DNA of 56,054 nt from NCBI GenBank assembly GCA_013202205.1, contig JABMSB010000012.1, positions 1-56,054 on the forward strand, written 5' to 3'. The first letter of the stretch is position 1, and each line of letters begins with the position of its first letter. This document shows, piece after piece, positions 14,183 through 56,054 of this stretch. The position numbers and the translations under genes are program-made. The stretch is from Candidatus Omnitrophota bacterium. Its GTDB lineage: Bacteria > Omnitrophota > Gorgyraeia > JABMSB01. The notes under the pieces were generated by a model. The model worked only from the letters and a program-made list of their open reading frames with translations. It had not been told where the DNA came from and made no database searches.

Positions 14183-14191
14183 ATAGTACAC

Positions 14192-14287
14192 AAATACGGG
14201 GAGCCTCTATGGGAGGGGCTGAGAAAAGGGTAATACCCTTGACCCGAAGAACCTGACCTGGATAATTCCAGCGTAGGGAAGGTGAAT
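14192..14287 (+). ncRNA. TPP (THI-box) riboswitch aptamer; ends approximate
   Basis: GGGG...GCTGAGA...ACCCG...ACCTGA CCTGGATAATTCCAGCGTAGGGAA matches the TPP consensus and precedes a thiamine gene. Confidence 0.95.
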
Positions 14288-14295
14288 GTGAAATG

Positions 14296-14329
14296 GCCGC
14301 GCTGGACGCTGGAGTGCGGCTTACTATTT
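14296..14329 (+). terminator. Probable expression-platform terminator of the TPP riboswitch
   Basis: Stem GCCGCGCT/AGTGCGGC (one G-U pair) followed by TTACTATTT, just upstream of the thi4 SD. Confidence 0.55.
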
Positions 14330-14345: not shown

Positions 14346-15137
14346 ATGGAAAAGTTTCATCCTGTATCGGAGGCATCGATTACGAGGGCGATCACGGAGG
14401 AGTTCCTTAAGGAGTTCAGCGATGGGATAGTCTCCGACGTTATAATCGTTGGAGCAGGCCCGAGCGGACTAGTAGCGGCAAGGGACTTAGCAAAGAAGAA
14501 CGTCAAGGTAGTAGTTATTGAGGCAAATAACTATCTCGGCGGAGGTTTTTGGATTGGCGGATATCTTATGAATAAATTGACGGTTCGTAAGCCGGGTGAA
14601 TCTGTTCTCGATGAGATAGGAGTTCCCTATAAGGAGTTTGAAGAGGGCCTCTTTGTAGCCGATGGCCCACATGCATGCTCAAAACTTATTGCCGCGGCGT
14701 GTGATGCAGGTGTTAAGGTTTTAAACATGACGAAGGTGGATGATGTCGTTTGCAGAAAAGGCAGGGTAGAAGGTGTAGTCATCAACTGGACACCCGTTGG
14801 CGCGTTACCACGCGCAATCACATGCGTAGATCCTGTTGCGCTTGAAGCAAAGGTCGTTATCGATGCGACAGGCCATGATGCCCATGTTGCCCGCGCCCTC
14901 CAGAGAAGAAATCTCCTTAAGATGGAAGAATTTGGTGTGATGGATGTCGTTGCTTCAGAGGATGCCATAGTCGAGAAGACCTCAGAAGTCTTCCCGGGGC
15001 TTATTGTCTGTGGAATGGCAGTTTCAACCGTCTTTGGTCTGCCGAGAATGGGCCCGACCTTTGGCGGTATGCTCATATCAGGGAAGAGGGCAGCTGAGAT
15101 AGCCATAGCTAGCGTTTTAGATAAGGCACTAGTTTAA
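14346..15137 (+). CDS. thi4: Thi4-family thiazole synthase (Cys-type)
   Basis: VGAGPSG FAD motif, GGGFWIGG, TCVDP (Cys160), IDATGHD, PRMGPTFGGMLISG; lies under a TPP riboswitch. Confidence 0.93.
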   Translation: MEKFHPVSEASITRAITEEFLKEFSDGIVSDVIIVGAGPSGLVAARDLAKKNVKVVVIEANNYLGGGFWIGGYLMNKLTVRKPGESVLDEIGVPYKEFEEGLFVADGPHACSKLIAAACDAGVKVLNMTKVDDVVCRKGRVEGVVINWTPVGALPRAITCVDPVALEAKVVIDATGHDAHVARALQRRNLLKMEEFGVMDVVASEDAIVEKTSEVFPGLIVCGMAVSTVFGLPRMGPTFGGMLISGKRAAEIAIASVLDKALV

Positions 15138-15160
15138 TAGAAAAGTAGCTATATAGATCT

Positions 15161-15200
15161 ATGCTTACAGGGTAGGCTTACGCCTACCCTGTAGCATTTA
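15161..15200 (+). terminator. Strong hairpin after thi4, probable terminator
   Basis: ACAGGGTAGGC-TTAC-GCCTACCCTGT is a perfect 11-bp stem, extendable by ATGCT/AGCAT; the U-tract is short. Confidence 0.6.
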
Positions 15201-15288
15201 TAGTTGTAACAATATATAAATAAATGGGTTATGATCATAAATTCTTGAAAAAAGACCCTATAAAAACCATATTTTTCCAAAAAAATGC

Positions 15289-35993: not shown

Positions 35994-37126
35994 ATGATGA
36001 GCAGAAGCGCGTTACTTGTACTTGAGGATGGCACCACCTTTGAAGGGACATCTTTCGGCGCTGAAGGAGAAGTCACAGGAGAAGCTATCTTCAATACGGC
36101 AATGACCGGCTACCAGGAGGTCCTTACAGATCCTTCTTATAAGGGCCAGATGGTAGCGATGACGTACCCATTGATCGGCAATTATGGCACGAATCCCTCC
36201 GATGTAGAATCCAGAAGCATATTCCTGCAAGCCTTAATAATTAAAGAACTTAGCGCAATACCCAGCAACTTCAGATCGAAGTGGACCCTTGATCAATACC
36301 TGAAAGATGGCGGCATTATGGGTATTCAGGGGGTTGATACCCGCGCCTTAACCAGGCATATAAGAATCCAGGGGGCAATGAAGGGGATCCTCTCTACCAA
36401 GGATCTCGATTCGGCCAGCTTAACCAAGAAGGCAAAGGATTCACCGGGCCTCATAGGCCGGGACCTGGTTAAGGAAGTCACCTGCGACAAGGAGTATGAA
36501 TGGCGGATGGACAATTGGGATTTTGGGTTAACGATACAAAAGCCCAAGGGTAAACGTAAGTTCTCAGTTATAGCTTATGACTTTGGTATAAAGTATAACA
36601 TTTTGCGTCTACTCGAGATGTATGGCTGCAAGGTTACGGTAGTTCCCGCAAAGACTAAAGCAAAATACGTCCTCTCCAAAGATCCGGATGGCATATTCCT
36701 CTCAAACGGCCCCGGCGATCCCGCAGCCGTCTCTTATGCGATAGAAGAGGTGCGACAGCTTTTCGGGAAGAAGCCGATATTCGGCATATGCCTGGCCACC
36801 AGATACTCGGTCTCGCACTGGGAGGCAAGACATACAAGCTTAAATTCGGACATCACGGCGGCAACCAGCCCGTGATGGACCTCAAGACGAAGAAGGTCGC
36901 CATAACGGCCCAGAACCACGGATTTGCCGTCGATATAAAATCGATAAAGGATAAGGACGTGGAGCTTACACATATCAATTTGAACGATAAGACGGCCGAA
37001 GGGTTGCGCCATAAAAAGTACCCTCTCTTTGGTGTACAGTACCATCCCGAGGCAGGACCCGGGCCCCACGACGCTACGTATCTTTTTGAAGAATTCATCA
37101 AAATGATGGAGAAGAAAGATGGCTAG
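35994..37126 (+). pseudogene. carA: Carbamoyl-phosphate synthase small subunit split by a 1-nt deletion (pseudogene or sequence error)
   Basis: The 5' ORF has [24 protein letters not shown] and FGICL, then loses frame. The other frame continues [10 protein letters not shown]...HHGGNQPV...AQNHGF...[11 protein letters not shown]. One G is missing at about 36794-36795; adding it gives about 377 aa. Confidence 0.92.
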
Positions 37127-38666: not shown

Positions 38667-41600
38667 GTGCCGAAGCGTACTGATATAAAGAAGATCATGA
38701 TAATCGGATCCGGGCCTATAGTCATTTCGCAGGCCTGTGAGTTCGACTATTCTGGCACACAGGCGTGCAAGGCCCTCAGGGAGGAAGGATATAAGGTAAT
38801 CCTCGTCAACTCCAACCCAGCTACCATAATGACTGATCCGGATTTCGCCGATAGGACCTACATAGAGCCGGTAACCCCCGAGATAGTTGCCAAGATCATA
38901 GAGAGAGAGCGTCCTGATGCCCTGCTGCCCACGCTCGGCGGCCAGACAGGCTTAAATACCGCCGTTAAGGTCTACGAAATGGGTATATTGAAAAAGTATA
39001 AGGTAGAGATGATAGGCGCCAAGTACGAATCGATAAAGAAGGCCGAGGATAGAAACCTCTTTAAGAAGGCGATGGAAAAGATAGGCCTCGATCTCCCAAA
39101 GAGCGGTTTGGCCCATTCCATGGAAGAGGCGAAACAGATAGTTAAAAAAATAGGTTTCCCCGTGATTATAAGGCCCAGTTTTACGCTCGGCGGGACCGGA
39201 GGAGGCGTTGCAAATAATGCCGAGGAGTTTGCACTCCAGGCCGCCTTAGGGCTTGAAAATAGTATGACTAAAGAGATACTCATTGAAGAATCTATCCTTG
39301 GGTGGAAGGAGTATGAGTTTGAGGTGATGAGGGACCTCAAGGATAATGTAGTTATCATATGCTCAATAGAGAACTTCGATCCGATGGGGATACATACAGG
39401 TGATTCGATAACGGTTGCGCCTGCGCAGACACTGACTGACAGGGAATATCAGAGGATGCGTGATGCTTCCATAGCCGTCATACGGGAGATAGGTGTTGAG
39501 ACGGGCGGTTCGAATATACAATTTGCCGTTAACCCCGAGGATGGCCGCATGGTAGTAATAGAGATGAATCCGAGGGTTTCACGCAGCTCTGCCTTAGCCA
39601 GCAAGGCGACGGGATTTCCGATCGCGAAGTTCGCGGCAAAGCTTTCTGTAGGATACACGCTCGATGAAATACCTAACGATATAACAAAAAAGACTCCGGC
39701 GAGTTTTGAGCCGACGATAGATTATTGTGTAGTTAAGATACCGCGTTTTACATTTGAAAAATTCCCTAAAGCAGATCCAACACTTACCATATCGATGAAA
39801 TCTGTCGGTGAGACGATGGCGATAGGCAGGACCTTCAAAGAAGCATTGCAGAAAGGTCTGAGAGGGTTGGAGGTAGGTGTCAGCGGCCTTGACGGTAAAG
39901 GAGGCATAACAGACTTAAATAAACCCGTAAGTGACTATATGCTCGAGACGAAATTAAAGGTCCCCACTGCCGAGAGGATATTCTATATAAAGAGGGCAAT
40001 ATTGGATGGATGGTCAACAGATGAGATCTACAAACTCTCACATATAGATCCGTGGTTTCTTGAAAATATAAGGGAGATTTGCGAGCTCGAGAAACGCATA
40101 ATAAAAGAGGCCGAACGCGGCAATATTCCGGTCACCTTGCTCAAGAAGGCCAAGGAGACAGGATTTAGCGATCTGCACCTCTCAAAGCTCTTAAATGCCA
40201 GCGAAGAGGTTATAAGACAGACGAGAAAGAAGAACGGTATAGAGCCGGTCTATAAGCTCGTCGATACGTGCGGCGCGGAATTCGAGGCCTACACGCCTTA
40301 CTACTATTCCACATATGAGATCGAAGATGAGGTGCGCCGTTCAAGGAAGAAGAAGATCATGATACTCGGCGGCGGCCCAAACCGTATAGGCCAGGGCATA
40401 GAATTCGATTACTGCTGTGTCCATGCCAGTTTTGCGTTGAAGGAAGACGGTTATGAGACGATAATGGTAAATTCGAATCCCGAGACCGTATCGACCGACT
40501 ATGATACCTCCGATAGATTATATTTTGAGCCATTGACAAAAGAAGATGTCCTCAATATATGCGACAAGGAGAAGCCGGATGGGGTGATAGTCCAATTCGG
40601 CGGCCAGACACCGCTCAATCTTGCAGTGGCTTTGGATAGGGCCGGCGTACCTATAATAGGGACACCCCCGGCGGCCATACACCGCGCGGAAGACAGGGAA
40701 GAATTTAAGCAGATGCTCCAAAAATTAGGTTTAAGGCAGCCTGCCAACGGCACTGCCACATCCTTGCCTGAGGCATACGAAGCTGCCCGAGAGATCGGAT
40801 ATCCCGTTGTGGTGAGGCCTTCATATGTTTTGGGAGGCCGCGCCATGGATATCGTTTACGATGAGTCATCTATGGAAGGTCTTATACGCAATGCCAAAGA
40901 GGCCTCGCCCGAGCACCCTATATTGATAGATAAGTTTATCGAAGATGCCATAGAGGTAGATGTCGACATGGTCTCCGATGGTTCAAAGGGAATTATATGC
41001 GGCATAATGGAACATATAGAGGAGGCCGGTATCCATTCAGGGGATTCGGCTTGTGTCTTGCCGCCCCACACGTTGAGCGATGATATCATAAAAGGTATAA
41101 AAGAGACCACGTACATGCTGGCTGAGGAACTTGGTGTCGTGGGATTGATGAATATCCAATATGCCATAAAAGATGACCTTATCTATGTCCTTGAGGTGAA
41201 TCCGCGCGCAAGCCGGACCGTGCCTTTTGTGAGCAAGGCAACGGGCATACCCTGGGCCAAGGTTGCCGCGCGTGTTATGGCCGGCAAGAAACTAAAAGAT
41301 ATCGGGATAACAAAAGAGGTTAAGCCGAAGTACTTCTCGGTAAAGGAATCCGTGCTCCCATTCTCCAGATTCGCAGGTGTCGATACGGTGCTGGGTCCGG
41401 AGATGAAATCGACCGGCGAGGTAATGGGCATAGATTCCGATTTCGGCATATCATTTGCCAAGGCACAAAGCGGAGCAGGGTTGGATCTGCCCAGCAAGGG
41501 TACGGTATTTTTAAGCGTCAAGAATAGTGATAAACGTGATATAATCTTTATGGCGAAGAAACTGGCAGACCTTAAGTTTAAATTGGTAGCTACTAAGGGT

Positions 41601-41909
41601 ACCGCGAAGGTCCTCAAGGCCAATGGCCTCAAGGTAAAAGCCCTCAAGAGGGTACTGGAGGGCAATCCAAACGCGATAGACCTTATTAAGAGGAATGGTA
41701 TTCAGCTCGTTATAAATACGCCTACGGGTAAAGGGCCAAAGAAGGACCAGGCGTCTATACGCTCTGTTGCGGTTATGCATGGGATACCATGTATCACTAC
41801 GATGGCAGGCGCCCAGGCTACGGTGACAGGCATGGATGCCATGTCGAAGCGAAAGATGAAGGTCAGGTCTTTACAGGAATATCACGGATTGCGTAAAGCA
41901 GCTCTATAA
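38667..41909 (+). CDS. carB: Carbamoyl-phosphate synthase large subunit, canonical copy
   Basis: [74 protein letters not shown] domain. Confidence 0.96.
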
Positions 41910-46499: not shown

Positions 46500-49400
46500 A
46501 TGCCAAGGCGCGATGATATCCATAAGATTCTCATTATCGGTTCAGGCCCCATCATCATAGGACAGGCCTGCGAATTTGACTATTCCGGGACGCAAGCCTG
46601 CAAGGCATTGCGTGAAGAGGGATATGAGGTTGTTCTTGTCAATTCAAATCCAGCCACGATCATGACCGATCCGGGCATGGCCGATAAGACATATATCGAG
46701 CCGCTTACGGTGGAGAGCCTCGAGAAAATAATAGAGAAAGAGAGGCCTGACGCGCTCCTCCCAAACCTGGGCGGCCAGACAGGGCTCAACTTGTCCTCCA
46801 GCCTTTTCAAGGAAGGCATATTAGAAAAATACGGTGTCGAGATAATCGGCGTAAAAGAAGATGCTATAAAACGCGGCGAGGATCGCCTGGCGTTTAAAGA
46901 GACGATGAATAAACTTGGCCTTGAGATCCCGCGATCGAATATAAGTACCTCAGTTGAGGAGGCCGAAAGGATGGCCGAGGAGCTAAAGTACCCTGTTGTC
47001 CTAAGGCCCGCATATACGATGGGTGGCACAGGAGGCGGAATTGCATATAATGTCGAGGAGTTACGAACGATCGTTGCCCGAGGCCTCAGTGTTAGCCTTG
47101 TCAGTCAGGTGTTGGTTGAGGAGTCTGTCATAGGATGGGAAGAGTTGGAGCTTGAAGTGGTACGCGACCACAAAAACCAGCTGATCACGGTATGCTTTAT
47201 AGAAAATATTGATGCTATGGGCGTACATACAGGAGATAGTTTTTGCACAGCCCCCATGCTCACTGTACCTGAGCCGCTACAGAAGAGGATGCAGGATGCA
47301 TCGTACAAAATAGTCGAGGCGATCGGTGTTATCGGCGGGACGAATATACAATTTGCCCATAATCTCAAAGACGATAGATTGGTTGTTATCGAGATCAATC
47401 CACGCACCTCCCGGTCTTCGGCGCTTGCCTCAAAGGCCACAGGTTTTCCTATAGCGCGCATTTCAACGAAGCTGGCCGCGGGTCTTACCATGGATGAGAT
47501 ACCTTACTGGCGCGATGGGACGCTCGAGAAGTATACCCCAAGCGGTGATTATGTAGTCATTAAGTTTGCCCGTTGGGCTTTTGAGAAGTTCCCCCAGGCA
47601 AAAGATATTATAGGCACTCAGATGAAGGCGGTCGGTGAGGTTATGTCAATCGGTAAGACCTTCAAGGAGAGTTTCCAAAAATCGATACGCTCACTCGAAA
47701 TTGGCAGATATGGCCTCGGTGGAGCTAAAGATTTTAAGACGCTCCCTCTCGATCAGCTTAAAGAGCGGCTCGCCGTACCTTCAAGCGAGCGCATCTTTCT
47801 TATTTACGAGGCGCTGCGCAAAGGGATGGGGGTAGAGGATCTTTATAATTTAACATATATCGGACGACGGTTTATCAGTGAGATGAAGGAGTTGGTCGAT
47901 TTTGAAGAAGAGTTGTTGAAAGAGCCATGGAACAGCCTCTCCGATAAGAGCTTGATCAAGGCAAAGGAATGGGGCTTCTCAGACAGGTATCTGGCAGGCC
48001 TATTCGGCATACATGAAGCCGATGTCAGAAAGAGACGCCTCGCGCTTGGAAAATCTGCGCGGTATGAACCAGTACCCGTAAGCGGAGTAGAGAATGCCGC
48101 ATACTACTATTCTACACATTGTATCAAAGAGGATAAGGTGCCTGTTTCTTCAAATAAGAAGATAATGATATTGGGTGGGGGGCCGAACAGGATAGGACAG
48201 GGCATAGAGTTTGATTACACCTGTGTCCACGCGGCATTTGCCTTGCGTGATGAGGGGTATGAGTCGATTATGGTAAATTGCAATCCGGAGACCGTATCGA
48301 CAGATTACGATACCTCCAACAAGCTCTACTTCGAACCCCTTACAGTAGAAGATGTCCTGGCTATCTATGATAAGGAAAAACCCGAAGGCGCCATTGTGCA
48401 GTTTGGCGGGCAGACACCGCTTAATATAGCGCAGGAGTTGAAAGAGTGCGGGGTCAATATTCTTGGGACGACCCCGGAATCGATCCGTTTTGCCGAAGAC
48501 CGGGAGCGGTTTCGTGAGAAGATGATAGCGCTCGGGATTCCGCAGCCGGAAAGCGGCACCGCGCGTTCTCTCGATCAAGCCCTTACGATCGCCAAGGCCA
48601 TCGGTTACCCTTTAATGGTACGGCCATCTTTCGTGCTTGGTGGCAGGGGTATGGAGATCCTTTATGATGAGCAGATGCTGCGTAAATATGCCGTTGAGGC
48701 GATCAAGGTAAGCCCCGAATACCCGATGCTTATCGATAGATTTTTGGAGCAGGCCGTTGAGACGGAGGTCGACGCGCTATGTGATGGCGAAGATACCTTT
48801 GTGGCATCGATCATGGAACATATAGAGCATGCAGGTATCCATTCAGGGGATTCAGCCTGCGCAATTCCAACGAGGACTATAGACCCTAAACACCTGAAGA
48901 CCATAAATGAATATACCGCCCAGATCGCTCGCGAGCTTAAGGTGGTAGGGCTTATGAATATCCAGTATGCGATATGTGATGATAAGGTCTATATCCTTGA
49001 GGCCAATCCAAGGGCATCCCGTACCGTACCGATAGTTTCAAAAATACGAGGTATCCCTATAGCTCGCATTGCAACACTCCTCATGCTCGGTAAGAAAATA
49101 AAAGATTTCCCGGAATTAAAAGATGAGAAGCTGAATTATGTCGGGGTTAAGGAAGCGGTCTTTCCATTTAATATGTTCCCTGAGGTAGATCCACTCCTCG
49201 GTCCTGAGATGAGGGCTACGGGAGAAGTTATGGGTATCGGCGATACATTCGGCCTTGCTTACTATAAGGCAACAGCGGCAGCAGGGACTAAACTTCCCGT
49301 AGATGGGAATGTGTTGATCACCGTTGAGGATAAGGATAAACCGTATCTATTGCCGATAGCAAAGAGGATACACAAGCTAGGATTCTCCATCTATGCGACA

Positions 49401-49742
49401 TCCGGTACAGGTAATTTCCTTAAAGAGAATGGCATACCTACCACCGAGATAAAGAAATTACACGAAGGCAGGCCGAATATCGCAGATGCGATCCAGAATG
49501 GCGAGATTAAGCTTATCATCAATACGCCGGTGGGCAGAAGCAGCCAGTATGATGATAGCTACATTCGCATGAAAGCGATACAGCACAAGATTCCTTATAT
49601 CACCACAATGGCCGCAGCTGAGGCAAGTGTTGAGGGGATCGAGGCTGTCAAGAATAAGAGCATTGCTCCAAAAGCACTACAGGATTATTATAAGGAAGCG
49701 AATAGAGATGCCGGAAAAGTTACTACAAAAACGGGGAACTAA
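46500..49742 (+). CDS. carB: Second, divergent carbamoyl-phosphate synthase large subunit
   Basis: Full two-ATP-grasp architecture ([34 protein letters not shown]) but with the divergent segment [20 protein letters not shown]. Confidence 0.93.
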
Positions 49743-49755
49743 AAAGGGGCCGGAT

Positions 49756-51273
49756 ATGGTAAAAGGAAAAGGTTTTGACAACGAGAAGTATCTGAAGGAG
49801 CAGACTCAGGCGATCTTAGAGCGGGTGGAGCAATTCGGTGACAAGCTCTATCTCGAGTTTGGCGGAAAGATCGTATATGACTACCATGCCTCAAGGGTCT
49901 TGCCGGGGTTTGCGCCCAACGTCAAGATGCAGCTCCTTAAGAAGCTGAAGGATAAGGCAGACATAATACTTTGCATATATGCCGGAGACATCGAACGTAA
50001 AAAGGTTAGGGCCGATTTTGGCATCACCTACGATGCGGATGCCCTCAGGATGATCGACGAATTAAGGGATTGGGGACTTAATATAGCAGCGATAGTAATA
50101 ACCCGCTTTGATGATCAGCCATCGGCTAAGATCTTTAAGAATAAGCTTGAGCGGCGCGGAATAAAGGTCTATACACACCGTTTTACAAAGGGTTATCCGA
50201 CGAATGTCGACCTGATAGTCAGCGACGAAGGTTATGGCGCAAATGCTTATATCGAGACGAAGAAGCCGCTCGTTGTAGTCACAGGGCCCGGTCCCGGAAG
50301 CGGAAAACTTGCCACTTGCCTCTCGCAGCTATATCATGACCATAAGAAGGGGGTCCACTCCGGGTATTCCAAATTCGAAACATTTCCTATATGGTCCATA
50401 CCGCTTAAACATCCCGTAAATGTCGCTTATGAATCGGCCACAGCCGACCTTAGAGATTTTAACATGATAGACCCTTTCCATCTGGAGGCGTATGGCAAGA
50501 CCACGATCAACTACAACCGCGACGTGGAGGTCTTCCCGGTCATTAAGAGGATCCTGCAGAAGATAATGGGGGAGGAGGCGGTATACAAATCGCCAACCGA
50601 TATGGGGGTAAATCGCGCGGGGTTTGGCATAATCGATGACGCAGTTGTAAAAGAGGCAGCCAAGCAGGAGATCCTCAGGAGATACTTCCGCTACGCGTGC
50701 GAGTACGCGCTCGGTTTTGTCGATAAGGAGACGGTCGAGCGGGCTGCACTCCTGGTAGAGGAGATCGGTATGAAGCCTGAGAATAGGGCCGTTGTTGAGC
50801 CGGCGAGAAAAGCCGCAATCGATGCAGAGAAGAAGAACAAGGATACCAGGTCCATATCCTGTGGCGCGGCCATAGAATTACCAAATGGGACAATCGTAAC
50901 AGGGAAGAATTCACCGCTTATGCATGCTCCCTCAAGCCTCACACTGAATGCGGTAAAGACGCTTGCTGAAATACCCGATAAGATACACATCTTATCACCG
51001 GCCACGATAGAATCTATAGGAAAACTGAAGAAGTCTATATCAAACAGGAAGGCGATAAGCCTCGATCTGGAGGAGACGCTCATAGCCCTCAGCATAAGCG
51101 CGGCAACAAATCCTACAGCTCAGTTGGCCATGGAGAAGTTGAAGGACCTGCGCGGCTGCGAGGTCCATCTGAGCCATATGCCTGTGCCGGGTGATGAGGC
51201 GGGCCTGCGCAAATTAGGGATGAACCTGACCAGCGAACCGAACTTCGCCACCGAAAGCCTCTTCATGGATTAG
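49756..51273 (+). CDS. DUF1846 (UPF0371) family protein with a P-loop-like motif
   Basis: [64 protein letters not shown]; start taken at ATG 49756. Confidence 0.9.
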
Positions 51274-51298
51274 CCCCCACCCAAGACGTTTCTCAACT

Positions 51299-51335
51299 CA
51301 ATCGGAGATCTGCCCTATTTCCAATCGGAGATCTG
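51299..51335 (+). repeat. Two 14-bp direct repeats CAATCGGAGATCTG, 23-bp period
   Basis: Exact copies at 51299-51312 and 51322-51335. Confidence 0.9.
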
Positions 51336-51369
51336 TCCCCTACAGGCAGGGCTTCATAAAATTCAAGGA

Positions 51370-51421
51370 GTTATCTACAGGAGTAGGGCACGCTTAAACA
51401 TGCCTGACAGTTGTGGATAGC
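51370..51421. repeat. 52-bp imperfect palindrome, copy 1
   Basis: GTTATCTACA-GGAGTAGGGCACGCTTAAACATGCCTGACAGT-TGTGGATAGC followed by TTTT; 3 differences from copy 2. Confidence 0.92.
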
Positions 51422-51449
51422 TTTTATTCGTTTGCATCATAAAATTCCC

Positions 51450-51478
51450 TTGCATAACCTAATCCTGTGGGATATACT
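51450..51478 (+). promoter_or_regulatory. Promoter candidate for the pilin gene
   Basis: TTGCAT-N17-TATACT; ATG 9 nt downstream, no SD. Confidence 0.6.
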
Positions 51479-51487
51479 ATTTTTATC

Positions 51488-51946
51488 ATGAAAAAATCCT
51501 TTACCCTAATAGAGCTTCTTATCGTAGTCATCATTGTAGGTATCCTGGCTACCGTGGCCTTGCCGCAGTATCAGAAGGTGGTGAAGAAGGCAAGGTGGAC
51601 TGAAGCGGTAAGCATGTTAGGCGCCATTAGAAAGGCGTGTGAGATTTATTACCAGGGGCATGGTGTAAAGCCTCAGAAGTCAGTTGCAAATGACTACATT
51701 TATTTAAATGGTACGGCGAAAGAAGATGAATTTGCATCATGGATTGATATAGAGATTCCCGAGCCTAGACCGCTTGGCAATTGGCGATTTATTTACAGTT
51801 TATATGCTGACAATCGTCCCGACGAAGTAGGTTGGGTTCATGTCGAAGAAAGCGGAGATGATGAATGGACCTCAGGCGAAGATGCCTTTATAAATATCTA
51901 TTATGACGGAAGATTGGTTTCCGGACCAGATGCCCCAGAATTTTAA
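51488..51946 (+). CDS. Type IV pilin-like protein (prepilin N-terminal cleavage/methylation domain)
   Basis: MKKS|FTLIELLIVVIIVGILATVALPQY class III signal; variable acidic C-terminal region. Confidence 0.9.
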   Translation: MKKSFTLIELLIVVIIVGILATVALPQYQKVVKKARWTEAVSMLGAIRKACEIYYQGHGVKPQKSVANDYIYLNGTAKEDEFASWIDIEIPEPRPLGNWRFIYSLYADNRPDEVGWVHVEESGDDEWTSGEDAFINIYYDGRLVSGPDAPEF

Positions 51947-52041
51947 TAATAGATACCATAATTGTTTGCAAATTTAGCCTTACCTCACCTGACCATCCCC
52001 ATAATTTCCTAATCGACTTATCTTGCCTCAAGGAGTATCAA

Positions 52042-52093
52042 GTTATCCACAGGAGTAGGGCACGCTTAAGCATGCCTGACAGTTGTGGATAAC
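52042..52093. repeat. 52-bp imperfect palindrome, copy 2 (arms are perfect DnaA-box sequences)
   Basis: GTTATCCACA-GGAGTAGGGCACGCTTAAGCATGCCTGACAGT-TGTGGATAAC followed by TTTTTTT; centred on GCTT|AAGC. Confidence 0.92.
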
Positions 52094-52102
52094 TTTTTTT
52101 GC

Positions 52103-52131
52103 TTGACAAAGGCGGGATAGTTAGCTATACT
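52103..52131 (+). promoter_or_regulatory. Sigma70 promoter of the marR-efflux operon
   Basis: TTGACA-N17-TATACT; ATG 8 nt downstream. Confidence 0.8.
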
Positions 52132-52137
52132 AACTAT
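52117..52137. promoter_or_regulatory. Probable MarR operator
   Basis: ATAGTTAG-N5-CTAACTAT perfect dyad spanning the -10 element of the marR gene. Confidence 0.75.
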
Positions 52138-52139
52138 TA

Positions 52140-52574
52140 ATGAAGCTAAGGAAATTTGCCGAGAGGATAAGCTATATACACCCCAGCCTGATGAAGGCCT
52201 TTGTCAGCAGCCGGCCCAAGGATATCGCCAAGATATCACTGCCCCAGATACTCATATTGGAGATATTGCTGGTAAAGGGCAAGGCCATTATGAGCGAGCT
52301 TGCAAATGACCTGCGCATAAGTACTGCCGGAACTACAGGGCTTGCGGACAGGATGATCGCAGCCGGATACTTAAAGAGATATCGCAGTAAGGAGGATAGG
52401 CGGCTGGTCTATGTAGAGATGACGGCAAAGGGCAGGCGCACAATAGAGGATATCAGGGCAAGGAGGCTCGGCCTGGTAGAGGACCTATTCAAAGATATCC
52501 CCGAAGATGAGAGGTGTGTATATCTAAATGTCATAGAGAAGATACACCAGAGATTAAAGCAGGGTGATAGATGA
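52140..52574 (+). CDS. MarR-family transcriptional regulator
   Basis: ISLPQILIL, MSELA, TTGLADRMIAAGYLKR..SKEDRRLVYVEMTAKG. Confidence 0.92.
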   Translation: MKLRKFAERISYIHPSLMKAFVSSRPKDIAKISLPQILILEILLVKGKAIMSELANDLRISTAGTTGLADRMIAAGYLKRYRSKEDRRLVYVEMTAKGRRTIEDIRARRLGLVEDLFKDIPEDERCVYLNVIEKIHQRLKQGDR

Positions 52575-54049
52575 TAAATAAATATTTAATAATTCTATTT
52601 TTACTTATCTTTGGCACGAGTTGTATGTTCCTATATACCCTTGAAGCCCAAGAAGAGTTAAGGGATGGGGGCTTAAGACTCTCTTTGGTAGATGTGACGA
52701 AGATTGCCCTAAGGAATAATATCGATATCAAGATAGCCCGTTTCGATACCCTTATAAAGGAGCAGGACCTCGATGATTCGAAATCGATCTTCGATACCGT
52801 GCTCGATTCGTCCATAGGATATGAGGTCGATTCGCGCAAGCGCGCAAGTACGTTATCGGGCACCAAGACGACCACAACAGATTTTGATTTGGGCCTTGAG
52901 AAGAAGCTCGAGACAGGGACTACGGTAGGTGCGGATTTTTCCGTAGGGCGCGATACCAGTGACTCGGCATTTGCGGCAGTCAATCCGAGTTACGAACCCG
53001 AGGTCGGATTTTCAATAAAACAGGAATTTGGAAGGAACTTTTTCGGTATAACCGATAGAGGAGAGGTTGCGATAACGCGGCTGGACATAGAGAACGTAAC
53101 AGAGAAGTCCCTCGACGCAATAGAAGATTCGATAGCATCCGCCCAAAAGGCATACTGGGAAGTTGCCCTTGCTAAAGAGCGCAGAAAGATAAAGGAGGAT
53201 ATGCTTAAGCGGGCCCAGGATCTCTTAAAGGCAAATGAGGGCCGATTCGATATGGGATCGGTTGAGGAGACGGATCTATTGGCTTCAAAGGCCAATGCCG
53301 AGCAGCGCAAAAGTGACCTTTTAGTTGCCGAGGATGAAGCGAAGAGCAAGGTAGAGGAGCTCTTGCTTATCTTAAACCTCGAAGCAGGTATCCCACTAAC
53401 CCTAAAGGACGATTTGGATATCGAAGGCTCTGGCAGGGCAGATCTCAAGCTCTCCATGAATAACGCCATCGAATCGAGGCGTGATTATAAGAGATCCAAG
53501 AATGAGATAGAATCCAATAAGATCAAGATCAAGATGAAGCGTACTGACTTGTGGCCGCAGCTCGATCTCGAAGGTACATTGGCGGTCAATGGATTGGATG
53601 AGAAATATAACGATTCGCTTAAGGATGTTACCAGGGATAATTATAAATACTATATAGGTATAAACGTCTCCATGCCGCTTGAGAATAGAGAAGCGCGGAG
53701 TGCCTATGAGAAGGCAAAGCTGGAAAAGGCGAAGGCCATAGTGAGTCTTCAGCAGGTTGAGCGCAAGATATTGACAGATATAGATAAGAGAGTGAGGGCA
53801 GTCAATGTGGCGCTTAATGTGCTCGAGCACCAGATGCTTGTTGAGGGGTACCAATCGAATAAGCTGGATGAGGAGATGCAGAAGTATAACAGGGGCCGCT
53901 CAGATACCGATACACTCGTTAGGTTCCAGGAGCACCTGCTTACCGCACAACTGGCGACTGCGCAGGCAGCACTCGGTTATAAGACCGCGATTATAGACCT
54001 TGCGGCTACAGAAGATACCCTTCTTCAGAAAGCGGAAGGCGCACGATGA
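52571..54049 (+). CDS. TolC-family outer membrane efflux protein
   Basis: Signal/anchor segment, LSLVDVTKIALRNN, AYWEV, duplicated helical repeats, YNRGRSD..TLV. Confidence 0.85.
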   Translation: MINKYLIILFLLIFGTSCMFLYTLEAQEELRDGGLRLSLVDVTKIALRNNIDIKIARFDTLIKEQDLDDSKSIFDTVLDSSIGYEVDSRKRASTLSGTKTTTTDFDLGLEKKLETGTTVGADFSVGRDTSDSAFAAVNPSYEPEVGFSIKQEFGRNFFGITDRGEVAITRLDIENVTEKSLDAIEDSIASAQKAYWEVALAKERRKIKEDMLKRAQDLLKANEGRFDMGSVEETDLLASKANAEQRKSDLLVAEDEAKSKVEELLLILNLEAGIPLTLKDDLDIEGSGRADLKLSMNNAIESRRDYKRSKNEIESNKIKIKMKRTDLWPQLDLEGTLAVNGLDEKYNDSLKDVTRDNYKYYIGINVSMPLENREARSAYEKAKLEKAKAIVSLQQVERKILTDIDKRVRAVNVALNVLEHQMLVEGYQSNKLDEEMQKYNRGRSDTDTLVRFQEHLLTAQLATAQAALGYKTAIIDLAATEDTLLQKAEGAR

Positions 54050-56054
54050 AACTTGCGGAATTTTCAGTAAAACAATCCCTATTCATTAACCTCTTATCTA
54101 TCTTTCTCGTGATAGCGGGGGCGTTTACCCTTATCAACATGCAGCGAGAGGCCTTTCCTAACATAACCTTCGATATAGTGACGATAACGACTTCGTATCC
54201 CGGTGCATCTCCGGAAGAAGTCGAGAAGCTTATTACAACACCTCTGGAGAAGGAGGTCAAAAAGGTCGACGGGATCAAAGAGATGGTCTCGAGTTCGCGG
54301 GAGAACTCCTCTTTGATATATGTCGAGATAGATCCCGATGCCAGCGACAAGGATAAGGTGGTCAATGATGTGCAGCGCGCTGTGGATAGATTTAACGATC
54401 TACCCGATGACGCCAACGATCCTGTAGTTACCGAAGTGACGACGAAGGAGATGGCGATACTGGAGGTTTCCTTAAGCGGAGATCTGAGCGAAAAGAAGCT
54501 GCAGTTATATGCGGAGTCGCTCGAGGATCGCATCGAGGATATAGACGGGGTCGCCGCCGTCAAAAGAAACGGTTTTAGGGAGAGGGAGATTTGGGTTGAG
54601 GTCGATCCCGAAAAGATGAGAGAGTATTACGTCTCCTTAGAGGAGGTAATGGCCGCTCTTAAGGCACGCAATATCAGTATCTCCGGGGGTGATCTGATAG
54701 AAGGGAGTACAGAGTTTAACATAAGGACGACAGGAGAATTCTACACGGCCAAGGAAGTTGCCGATGTTATTATAAGGGCCAACGATGCCGGCAACTGGCT
54801 GAGGGTAAAAGATGTCGCCGTAGTTAAGGATGGTTACAAAGACGAAAATTTGATACATAAGACCCGCGGTACACAAGCGATAAATCTTGTGGTGACCAAA
54901 AGGGAGTCCGGAGACGCCATAAGTATAGTGGAGGATATAGATAGGGTCCTTGACGATTTTAAGAAGTCAGCCCCGGCCGAACTCCAATTTTCTATAGTGA
55001 AGGATCTCTCATTTTACATAAAGCGCAGGTTGAATGTACTAAAACGGAATGCCGTTATCGGCGTAATCCTCGTCATCTCTTCGCTGCTTCTCTTCTTAAA
55101 CAGGCGCGTGGCGATTATGACTACACTTGGCATACCGATAGCATTTTTGACTACCTTTGCCGTTATGGGATATATGGGCATATCGATAAATCTTATAAGT
55201 ATGTTCGGCCTCATTATTGTCCTGGGCATGATAGTCGATGACGGTATTATAATATCAGAGAACGTCTATAGGCACATGGAGGAAGGGTTATCTCCGCGTC
55301 AGGCCGCTATAGTGGGTACGAGTGAGGTCATGAAGCCGGTATTTGCAACCATAGCCACTACCATGGCTGCATTCTCATCGCTCTTTTTTATGAGTGGGAT
55401 TATGGGTAGATATGTGCGCAATATCCCGATAGTCGTTATTGTGGCATTGATGGCTTCAATGATGGAGGCGTTTATAATACTTCCGTCACACCTGGCTGAC
55501 TTCGTAAGGCCCATAAAGAACAAGGTGGGCAAGATCATGTCGAAGAAGGAGTCGCCGTGGTTTGCTTCAATACTCAATTCTTATACCGCACTCTTAAAGG
55601 GTGCGATGAAGAACAGATATAAGGTCTGTCTCGTGGTTATAGCGGTTTTTATACTTTGCCTGGGTCTCGTCTTCAGCGGTGTTATGAGATTTTCACTTTT
55701 CGGTTCAGGCGGTGTAGAGGAGTTTTATGTAAGGGCTGAAGCGCCTGTCGGTACCCCACTGGAGGTTACCAGCGGGATGGTTTCGAAGATCGAGGATATC
55801 ATAACCACCCTGCCGCCGGAATATATGGATACCTTTACAACTACCGTGGGTCGCAGCGGGGAAGACTATGGATTCGATCCCTATGGCAGACAGGGGAGCA
55901 ACATGGCGCAGATAGCCGTCTATTTGACGCCAAGCCAGACACGGAAACGCGAGGCACAGGATATCATGGAAGATCTGCGCAAGACGGTTGAGGAGGCTAA
56001 GGTGCCGGGCTTTGAAAAGGTTGCCTTCTTTATCCCGGAGCATGGCCCGCCCAA
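54046..56054 (+). CDS. RND (AcrB/AcrD/AcrF family) efflux permease, 3' partial
   Basis: Manual translation from ATG 54046: REAFPNI, YPGASPEEVEKLIT.PLE, GMIVDDGIIISEN, PSH; open to the window end. Absent from the track because it has no stop. Confidence 0.92.
   Translation, partial: MKLAEFSVKQSLFINLLSIFLVIAGAFTLINMQREAFPNITFDIVTITTSYPGASPEEVEKLITTPLEKEVKKVDGIKEMVSSSRENSSLIYVEIDPDASDKDKVVNDVQRAVDRFNDLPDDANDPVVTEVTTKEMAILEVSLSGDLSEKKLQLYAESLEDRIEDIDGVAAVKRNGFREREIWVEVDPEKMREYYVSLEEVMAALKARNISISGGDLIEGSTEFNIRTTGEFYTAKEVADVIIRANDAGNWLRVKDVAVVKDGYKDENLIHKTRGTQAINLVVTKRESGDAISIVEDIDRVLDDFKKSAPAELQFSIVKDLSFYIKRRLNVLKRNAVIGVILVISSLLLFLNRRVAIMTTLGIPIAFLTTFAVMGYMGISINLISMFGLIIVLGMIVDDGIIISENVYRHMEEGLSPRQAAIVGTSEVMKPVFATIATTMAAFSSLFFMSGIMGRYVRNIPIVVIVALMASMMEAFIILPSHLADFVRPIKNKVGKIMSKKESPWFASILNSYTALLKGAMKNRYKVCLVVIAVFILCLGLVFSGVMRFSLFGSGGVEEFYVRAEAPVGTPLEVTSGMVSKIEDIITTLPPEYMDTFTTTVGRSGEDYGFDPYGRQGSNMAQIAVYLTPSQTRKREAQDIMEDLRKTVEEAKVPGFEKVAFFIPEHGPP

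Follow-up and report, generated by a model that had tools for sequence, protein, structure and literature searches.

A single pilin gene between two copies of one hairpin

The window (the whole stretch of DNA that was analyzed, 56,054 nt) consists of co-directional housekeeping genes of an uncultured Omnitrophota bacterium. Among the genes recognized by Pfam are those for a Mbh-type hydrogenase and for thiamine, haem, purine, and carbamoyl-phosphate, as well as a MoxR/Bat cluster. Omnitrophota are also named as the source of the pilin and DUF1846 homologs in the records of these proteins. Near one end of the window, a DUF1846 gene is followed by a pilin gene and then by marR, and all genes around this junction lie on the plus strand. 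The start of the DUF1846 gene is taken as called in contig L001 from JGI. The features of the locus, all on the plus strand, are these:

49708..51273, +: DUF1846/UPF0371 gene (Pfam DUF1846 N-terminal domain, E 1.6e-172; C-terminal domain, E 6.3e-54)
51299..51338, +: two 17-nt units CAATCGGAGATCTG(C/T)CC with a 23-nt period in the 3' spacer of the DUF1846 gene (repeat search)
51351..51368, +: left-flank motif CTTCATAAAATTCAAGGA, similar to the DNA on the left of the marR-side element in relatives
51369..51428, +: copy 1 of the repeated element, an imperfect palindrome (51368-51423) plus TTTTATT (repeat search, fold, covariance model at 88.1 bits)
51450..51478, +: putative pilin promoter, TTGCAT-17-TATACT (read by eye from the sequence)
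51488..51946, +: type IV pilin-like gene, 152 aa, MKKS-FTLIELL... (PF07963, TIGR02532, profiles, AF2 model)
52041..52100, +: copy 2 of the repeated element, a palindrome (52040-52095) plus T7 (52094-52100) (repeat search, fold, covariance model at 94.5 bits)
52103..52139, +: marR promoter, TTGACA-17-TATACT, with an inverted repeat (promoter scan, 11/12)
52140-52574, +: marR (Pfam MarR)
52571-54049, +: outer-membrane efflux protein gene (Pfam OEP)
54046 onward, +: RND pump gene (Pfam ACR_tran)

Because the RND pump gene follows marR and the outer-membrane efflux protein gene, these genes can be read as an efflux operon. Between the DUF1846 gene and this operon there is a single gene, at 51488-51946. 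A preliminary description of the DNA had stated that the interval holds exactly one promoter and one pilin gene. The single pilin gene stands, whereas its putative promoter falls below the threshold of our consensus scan, which reported only the promoter of marR. The −10 element of the pilin promoter would end 9 nt ahead of the ATG, which suggests that the pilin mRNA is probably leaderless.

The enclosed protein carries the pilin N-methylation motif (PF07963, TIGR02532), and profile searches match it to PilA, PilE, and geopilin entries of the PDB with E-values down to 1e-15. Its FTLIELL segment, including the glutamate at position 5, is invariant among the homologs aligned, and residue −1 is serine in place of the usual glycine. 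The AF2 model (pLDDT 88.7) predicts a 52-residue N-terminal helix (residues 7-58) followed by a beta-sheet, and in a fold search with this model pilins rank first, with weak matches. Judged from its leader, its hydrophobic helix with Glu5, and its predicted alpha-beta fold, the enclosed gene is a type IV pilin.

The gene had also been described as more AT-rich than its neighbors, and this is correct. At 0.436, its GC content lies below the gene mean of 0.477 (z −2.3), and GC3 is low as well, at 0.418 (z −2.6). Comparable values are found in two pilin paralogs of the same genome (GC3 0.431 and 0.448), and the base composition is therefore rejected as a sign of foreign origin. The pilin gene appears to be an ordinary chromosomal paralog rather than cargo. 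Its nearest homologs are 55-58% identical, whereas relatives of MarR reach 88-91%.

Anatomy of the repeated hairpin

The 60-nt direct copies (51369-51428 and 52041-52100) are separated by 672 nt from start to start and are 93% identical over their 60 nt; within the palindrome, 52 of 56 positions agree. Differences between copy 1 and copy 2 fall at repeat positions 8 (T/C), 30 (A/G), 52 (G/A), and 58 (A/T). The number of differences depends on the frame chosen, with three in the 52-nt core used by the preliminary description and four in the 56-nt frame, and our repeat search recovered the two direct copies 672 bp apart with 3 of 52 positions different, just as reported earlier. When the window was searched for the 40-nt core with up to three mismatches, the only two sites in 56 kb (0.00 expected) were these known copies.

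Both copies consist of an imperfect palindrome of 56 nt with a T-run behind it. Copy 2 is centered on TT|AA, and its arms (52040-52067 and 52068-52095) are 79% complementary, in agreement with the symmetry given in the preliminary description. The T-runs that had been reported after both copies are indeed present on the plus strand, as TTTTATT at 51422-51428 after copy 1 and as T7 at 52094-52100 after copy 2. The sequence TCAAGGAG was likewise said to precede each copy. It does so (51363-51370 and 52028-52035), but not in the same register, because it is shifted by 7 nt in copy 2.

The RNA of the plus strand is predicted to fold at −25.6 kcal/mol for copy 1 (z −3.9) and at −35.2 kcal/mol for copy 2 (z −6.3). 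Both outer-stem changes in copy 1 are U·G wobbles on the plus strand (pairs 13-52 and 8-57), which upholds another point of the preliminary description. On the minus strand, copy 1 folds more weakly (−16.2 kcal/mol) because the two stem substitutions that are U·G on the plus strand become A·C. The stem comprises ~24-26 pairs with internal loops, and its base beside the U-run is A/U-rich (GGAUAAC). A simple terminator consensus scan called neither hairpin. The distance from stop codon to hairpin is 95 nt for the DUF1846 gene and copy 1 and 94 nt for the pilin gene and copy 2, and the next −35 element lies 7-27 nt beyond the end of each copy.

Two further short motifs are embedded in the element. 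The tetranucleotide GTAG (52054-52057 and 51382-51385) stands ahead of the inner stem GGCACGC/GCATGCC, inside the larger palindrome. In addition, the outer arms correspond to the DnaA-box consensus, with TTATCCACA at 52043-52051 and its inverse at 52084-92. The window has three perfect DnaA-box 9-mers, against ~0.4 expected by our own length-based estimate, and two of them are located in the arms of copy 2. No Rfam family matches the element at gathering thresholds, and relaxed E-values gave chance-level matches only.

The marR side of the locus in relatives

The nearest relatives of the DUF1846 protein (83-86% amino acid identity) have a different downstream gene, GATase_7, and are therefore uninformative as empty sites. 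Informative relatives were reached through MarR, namely P0242 (91% amino acid identity, contig L099) and P0243 (88%, contig L100) (ENA ERZ24794672). Of the 39 nt that run from the −35 element to the marR ATG, L099 and L100 preserve 37-38, although identity at 4-fold sites is only 0.7-0.83. A perfect inverted repeat, ATAGTTAG-N5-CTAACTAT (52117-52137), spans the −10 element and is a likely MarR operator, and the start of the marR mRNA looks leaderless. Since the marR promoter already contains this invariant repeat, there is no need to invoke the hairpin as a MarR site, and the idea that it is the MarR operator was set aside.

In L099, a 56-nt palindrome occupies the same position upstream of marR and is perfectly paired. 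Only 35 of its 56 bases are identical to those of copy 2, which is near the level of 4-fold sites (0.67-0.73). In five pairs both partners have changed, and pairing holds in 87% of cells, as opposed to 35-49% with slid partners. The structure of the hairpin has thus been kept in this relative where its sequence has not, with the compensatory changes coming from L099 as the single relative. What L099 does retain are the outer arms (CTATCCACA and TGTGGATAA), AGTAG (and hence GTAG), and the central TTAA, whereas the inner stem has changed. An insert of 12 nt separates the hairpin from the T7, and the left flank, ACTTATCTTG, is that of window positions 52015-52024 in the 3' UTR of the pilin gene.

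The arrangement in L100 is simpler. A homologous left flank is followed only by AGTTGAGAAACGC and then by the promoter, and both hairpin and T-run are absent. This remnant resembles the end of the right arm, AGTTGTGGATAAC, as if the element had been deleted between two AGTT repeats. Because L100 lacks both the hairpin and the T-run, the element is dispensable. Moreover, the DNA beside the marR promoter in L099 and L100 is homologous to the pilin 3' UTR, so the right-hand junction shows conservation and not variability.

The two copies are more alike than the orthologous elements are. Copy 2 on the marR side would be the ancestral one, an old and structurally constrained hairpin at the junction of the pilin 3' UTR and marR that can nevertheless be lost. 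We infer from the same alignments that copy 1 is a recent and sharply bounded duplicate, because 52 identical positions of 56 are far above the orthologous similarity and because the flanks of the element in the two intergenic regions show no significant homology (p 0.13 and 0.16). Clear homology extends over 60 nt, and perhaps over ~80 nt if the left flank is counted. That flank, CTTCATAAAATTCAAGGA, matches L099 at 18 of 25 positions (our own ungapped comparison) and L100 at ~19 of 23 (with one gap), and was probably part of the copied unit, even if this evidence is weak when taken alone.

Copy number and spread

A third copy was revealed neither by BLAST nor by a covariance model built from the two copies (R1), whether in the window itself or on contigs L003, L015, and L017. 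Together these give ~86 kb of the same genome; the three contigs were assigned to it by GC content (0.47-0.49) and tetranucleotide correlation (r 0.93-0.94). The three public collections were equally empty. The apical 24-mer has 0 matches in the genome, metagenome, and viral contig collections. A pattern that fixes the outer stems and leaves the interior flexible likewise has 0 matches in the metagenome and viral contigs, although the source contig itself is evidently absent from these collections. A BLAST search of plasmids and phages with the pilin module gave no match.

An association of the element with pilin genes, as the preliminary description had envisaged, was not found either. The element is absent from the five other homologs examined, which are the same-genome paralogs P0009 and P0008 and the closer homologs P0005, P0002, and P0003 from other organisms. 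The two paralogs are complete genes in unrelated operon contexts, and the window contains no partial or silent promoterless pilin copies. Among 80 diverse pilin loci there are no flanking hairpin pairs, only coding repeats between paralogs; this set serves as a control only, being dominated by generic N-terminal pilin matches from many phyla. Nor does the element keep company with a recombinase or a REP-associated transposase, since Pfam finds no integrase, transposase, RAYT (Y1), or other recombinase among the ~50 open reading frames of the window. A regular-expression search for attC cores (RYYYAAC...GTTRRRY) returned 0 in the whole window and none in 51200-52250 on either strand.

More distant likenesses do occur in the same genome. 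A hairpin after thi4 (15157-15211) is a weak match to the covariance model (E ~0.01). Perfect intergenic palindromes of 26-28 nt centered on CTTAAG were found at L003:5193, L015:10042, and L017:1462 (three in ~29 kb), and the apical core of our element matches the core of this family at 14 of 16 positions. Near matches, with at most three mismatches, occur four times in the window against 0.22 expected. GTAG is missing from all three of these family members. The 16-mer REP-like core has five matches in the viral contigs, which by our own estimate is the chance level for a database of that size.

Strain comparison and assembly breaks

The locus is spanned by JGI contigs from two samples (3300032738 and 3300032608), and these are 100% identical across it. 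Differences that seemed to distinguish strains in L002 and L003 were discarded, since each is located at a contig end away from the locus.

A third sample is represented by the Logan assembly of SRR28106056. Here the flanking genes were assembled, but the assembly breaks off at 51308 and resumes exactly at 52041, where copy 2 begins, and the exact pilin protein is on no Logan contig. The left break, at the end of Logan contig L014, falls within the 17-nt repeat of the DUF1846 spacer and is inconsistent with a simple deletion between copy 1 and copy 2. Repeat collapse does not explain the gap because the two copies share no 31-mer. Low coverage or hairpin-related drop-out can explain it.

Competing explanations for the paired copies

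The headline proposal for this arrangement came with the preliminary description, which saw in the copies a pair of recombination sites bounding a pilin module that could be excised, inserted, or swapped. The geometry is suggestive, with one open reading frame and its own putative promoter lying between direct repeats in 0.67 kb, the size of a cassette, and 52 identical positions of 56 would suffice for homologous recombination. The Logan contigs that skip the pilin gene without a shared 31-mer, and the low identity of the pilin homologs relative to that of the MarR relatives, can be read in the same direction. However, none of the tests run on copies, pilin loci, recombinases, attC sites, strains, or relatives lent the proposal support. 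The locus is invariant in the two JGI samples, the left Logan break does not fit the deletion, and the sequence to the left of the marR-side element in L099 and L100 is homologous to the pilin 3' UTR. L100 is not an empty site, because it has lost the hairpin but kept the left flank. With no further copy in the ~86 kb or the collections scanned, and no other examined pilin homolog flanked in this manner, we judge the cassette to be highly improbable. Integron cassettes likewise present a single open reading frame of ~0.7 kb between imperfect palindromes of ~60 nt in direct orientation, but the ends here, 5'-GTTATCC...GGATAAC-3', are the reverse of RYYYAAC...GTTRRRY, and there are no R''/R' cores. 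The gene moreover has its own putative promoter, the window has no integrase and only these two sites in place of an array, and the repeat includes T-runs. In IS200/IS605-type elements and PATEs, their passenger-carrying derivatives, the two ends bear directly oriented subterminal hairpins that resemble each other, and terminal inverted repeats and target duplication are lacking. The present locus shares these traits, but it has no TnpA or TnpB, no second whole unit, and a right junction that is conserved in relatives. In the antigenic variation of Neisseria pilE/pilS, a conserved Sma/Cla repeat lies downstream from the pilin gene, and the silent copies are promoterless and 5'-truncated but have conserved blocks in common with the expressed gene. 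A repeat 3' of the pilin gene and several paralogs with conserved ends and variable middles recall that system, but here the repeat is found 5' of the gene too and includes a T-run of the terminator type. A different reading makes the palindrome a binding site in double-stranded DNA for a protein that works as a dimer or in pairs. Two inverted DnaA boxes or a site for a regulator shared by the pilin and marR promoters would be examples, and the site would act on the promoters downstream. The excess of perfect DnaA boxes, the closeness of both copies to the next −35 elements, and the preservation in L099 of arms, AGTAG, and central TTAA while the inner stem changed all speak for it, as does the retention of the L099 hairpin despite its detachment from the T-run. 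Yet conservation of a 9-bp stem at a neutral identity of ~0.7 is only marginally unexpected (p ~0.04, our own estimate), and the changes in copy 1 strike both half-sites and do so as RNA-compatible wobbles. The compensatory changes of the inner stem favor pairing over base-specific recognition, the marR promoter already possesses an operator-like repeat, and near-identity over 60 nt that includes the T-run would be unusual for operators. A protein-binding site is accordingly improbable in our estimation.

More weight is due to the possibility that the hairpin is, or derives from, a small self-copying palindrome of the REP/REPIN or MITE kind, in which case copy 1 would be a new insertion, its position beside the pilin gene incidental, and termination a side effect. 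REP families are dispersed, at roughly one member per 10 kb. The 56-nt element has only two adjoining copies in ~86 kb and is longer than a typical REP, the window encodes no RAYT or other transposase, and neither a target-site duplication nor a terminal inverted repeat beyond the palindrome is present. The element is also not a REPIN, because its arms are not REP-like palindromes themselves. Against this stand several likenesses. Homology between the copies is sharply limited to the palindrome, the T-run, and ~20 nt, with flanks that are not significant, and the duplication is recent relative to the divergence of the orthologs. REPs and REPINs, with their RAYT transposases, are defined as extragenic imperfect palindromes with GTAG on the 5' side (PMC3116915, PMC3337134), and our element may share this trait, being an extragenic imperfect palindrome with GTAG ahead of its inner stem, albeit within the larger palindrome. 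The same genome contains the REP-like CTTAAG family, with its 14 of 16 matching apical positions and its four near matches in the window, as well as the weakly matching hairpin after thi4. The similarity to the CTTAAG palindromes is short, however, and may reflect convergence of GC-rich stems. On balance we regard an origin by REP- or MITE-like copying as unlikely. A hybrid account can also be formulated, in which a copy-and-paste terminator module related to the CTTAAG palindromes installs insulated single-gene units and homologous or site-specific recombination between copies could then delete or exchange the pilin gene, which would be a previously undescribed route to pilin variation, but it has very little probability in our view.

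Putative terminators that would insulate the pilin gene

The reading we favor, as a probable one and without great confidence, is that the hairpins with their U-runs are putative terminators or insulators that separate the DUF1846 gene, the pilin gene, and the efflux operon, copy 2 being ancestral and copy 1 recently added. The preliminary description had kept a duplicated long terminator as its conservative fallback, and this alternative agrees with the evidence. In the plus-strand RNA, each copy would form a long hairpin with imperfect pairing, directly ahead of a U-run. The transcript of the upstream DUF1846 gene would end at copy 1, right before the pilin promoter, and copy 2 would stop transcription of the pilin gene right before the promoter of marR and the efflux genes. 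If both copies do terminate transcription, the pilin gene would become a self-contained, monocistronic, and probably leaderless unit. The hairpins may possibly serve as 3'-end stabilizers as well. Candidate routes by which copy 1 could have arisen include short-patch ectopic conversion, REP/MITE-like copying of the palindrome, and a tandem duplication of the pilin unit of which copy 1 would be a remnant.

The stem of an intrinsic terminator is typically short, G+C-rich, 5-14 bp long, and abuts the U-tract, although these traits are not strictly defining. The present hairpins resemble such terminators in being stable on the sense strand, in being followed by a U-run, and in their position between a stop codon and the following promoter, and the structure of this element has been held by compensatory changes despite sequence drift. 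They differ in that the stem extends over ~24-26 pairs and 56 nt, is interrupted by internal loops, and is rich in A/U at its base, in that two copies 93% identical lie 672 nt apart, and in that the U-run of L099 is 12 nt off the stem. Their capacity to terminate is something we infer from predicted folds and positions.

Several considerations weigh against the terminator reading, besides the atypical stem that the consensus scan did not call. L100 does without both hairpin and T-run. A recent duplicate of 60-80 nt placed 672 nt away is without an ordinary mechanism. The L099 palindrome, perfect and yet set apart from its T7, suggests that the element may do more than terminate transcription, or something else. 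Finally, a REP-like family of palindromes in the same genome has a core similar to the apex of the element. The compensatory changes are also weakened as evidence because palindromes can correct themselves by template switching.

Significance for Omnitrophota

Omnitrophota rely heavily on type IV pili for a presumed host-attached lifestyle (PMC10066038). For this reason a real pilin-exchange mechanism would matter, and nothing that we found points to one. The element is an intergenic hairpin of a known kind, either terminator-type or REP-like. The sharply bordered copying of a 60-80-nt palindrome may be linked to the REP-like palindromes of this genome, and REP-type elements are not known to us from Omnitrophota. 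If the favored reading is true, the locus would represent ordinary gene punctuation, in which a terminator hairpin was duplicated and a pilin paralog came to be transcribed alone. The value would then lie mainly in annotation, with three transcription units, promoters of an apparently leaderless type, and a likely MarR operator marked. The locus would also offer a worked example, from an uncultured phylum, of a hairpin that has been kept through compensatory change.

Arms and apex of the pilin-flanking hairpin

The outer stem arms of the hairpin that flanks the pilin gene correspond, in inverted orientation, to the DnaA-box consensus TTATCCACA in copy 2 (52043-52051 on the + strand and 52084-52092 on the - strand). 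Each copy 1 arm, at 51371-51379 and 51412-51420, matches this consensus with one mismatch. The portion of the hairpin that is kept in L099, a contig of a relative found through MarR, consists of these DnaA-box-like outer arms. This resemblance could have arisen by chance, or the arms could serve as a site for DnaA or another protein.

Perfect intergenic palindromes of 26-28 nt with a CTTAAG centre, such as TGTGGCGCAGGCTTAAGCCTGCGCCACA, are present on other contigs assigned to the window's genome (L003:5193-5220, L015:10042-10069 and L017:1462-1487). Between copies there is a compensatory G/C swap, and a T-run is absent 3' of each of them. We regard these palindromes as a REP-like family, to which both the apex of the pilin-flanking hairpin and a hairpin located 3' of thi4 look related.

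Features of the thi4 locus
14187-14296, TPP riboswitch (67.2 bits), 5' of thi4
14346-15137, thi4 gene
15166-15193, thi4 3' hairpin, TACAGGGTAGGCTTACGCCTACCCTGTA

Other features of the window and its contigs

The carA gene (35994-37126) is apparently split by a frameshift: it may be a pseudogene, the frameshift may be programmed, or the assembly may be wrong here. Two carbamoyl-phosphate synthase large-subunit paralogs lie less than 8 kb apart, with purS/Q/L/F-type genes between them.

Carbamoyl-phosphate genes and the DUF1846 3' spacer
35994-36875, carA ORF 1, CPSase small-chain domain and GATase positions 3-81
36788-37126, carA ORF 2, overlapping ORF 1, GATase 81-190
38667-41909, large-subunit paralog, full-length (1080 aa)
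46500-49742, large-subunit paralog, full-length (1080 aa)
51299-51338, DUF1846 3' spacer, two 17-nt units, CAATCGGAGATCTG(C/T)CC, 23 nt apart

The first 17-nt unit contains the end of the Logan contig L014 (51308). Discrepancies between contigs were encountered at two places, both outside the hairpin locus. In the JGI contig L002 (sample 3300032608, positions 1-580), unrelated sequence begins inside the carB 3' end (window ~49500), and the Logan contig L003 differs at eight positions from window 55953-56022, within the final 100 nt. These are either chimeric contig ends or co-existing variants.

Pilin homologs

The pilin leader (51488-51502) comprises only four residues, MKKS, and carries Ser at position -1 rather than the near-universal Gly; across family members this position is S, A or G. 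The closest homolog by identity, P0003 (58%), is one of at least three pilin genes arrayed head to tail at spacings of 28-98 nt (L098:1-1030, ENA ERZ24794676), and no hairpins lie between these genes. In another organism (GC 0.40), pilin paralog P0005 is directly followed by a single AAA_14/DUF4143 ATPase gene enclosed by two repeats.

Repeats beside P0005
L004:5405-5466, 62-nt direct repeat
L004:6765-6826, 62-nt direct repeat

Their terminal part, GGTTCGAATCCCTGCCTCTCCGCCA, resembles a tRNA 3' end, and the repeats look like att-site remnants from a small integrated element.

Promoter of marR and putative promoter of the pilin gene

52103-52139, marR promoter, TTGACA-17-TATACT
52117-52137, perfect inverted repeat ATAGTTAG-N5-CTAACTAT, spanning the marR -10 element

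Only 8 nt separate the end of the marR -10 element from the ATG, and an identical TATACT lies 9 nt upstream of the pilin ATG. Given this spacing, both mRNAs look leaderless. Because 37-38 of 39 nt in the marR promoter region are unchanged in two relatives, the inverted repeat over the -10 element is likely to be an operator through which MarR would regulate its own gene.
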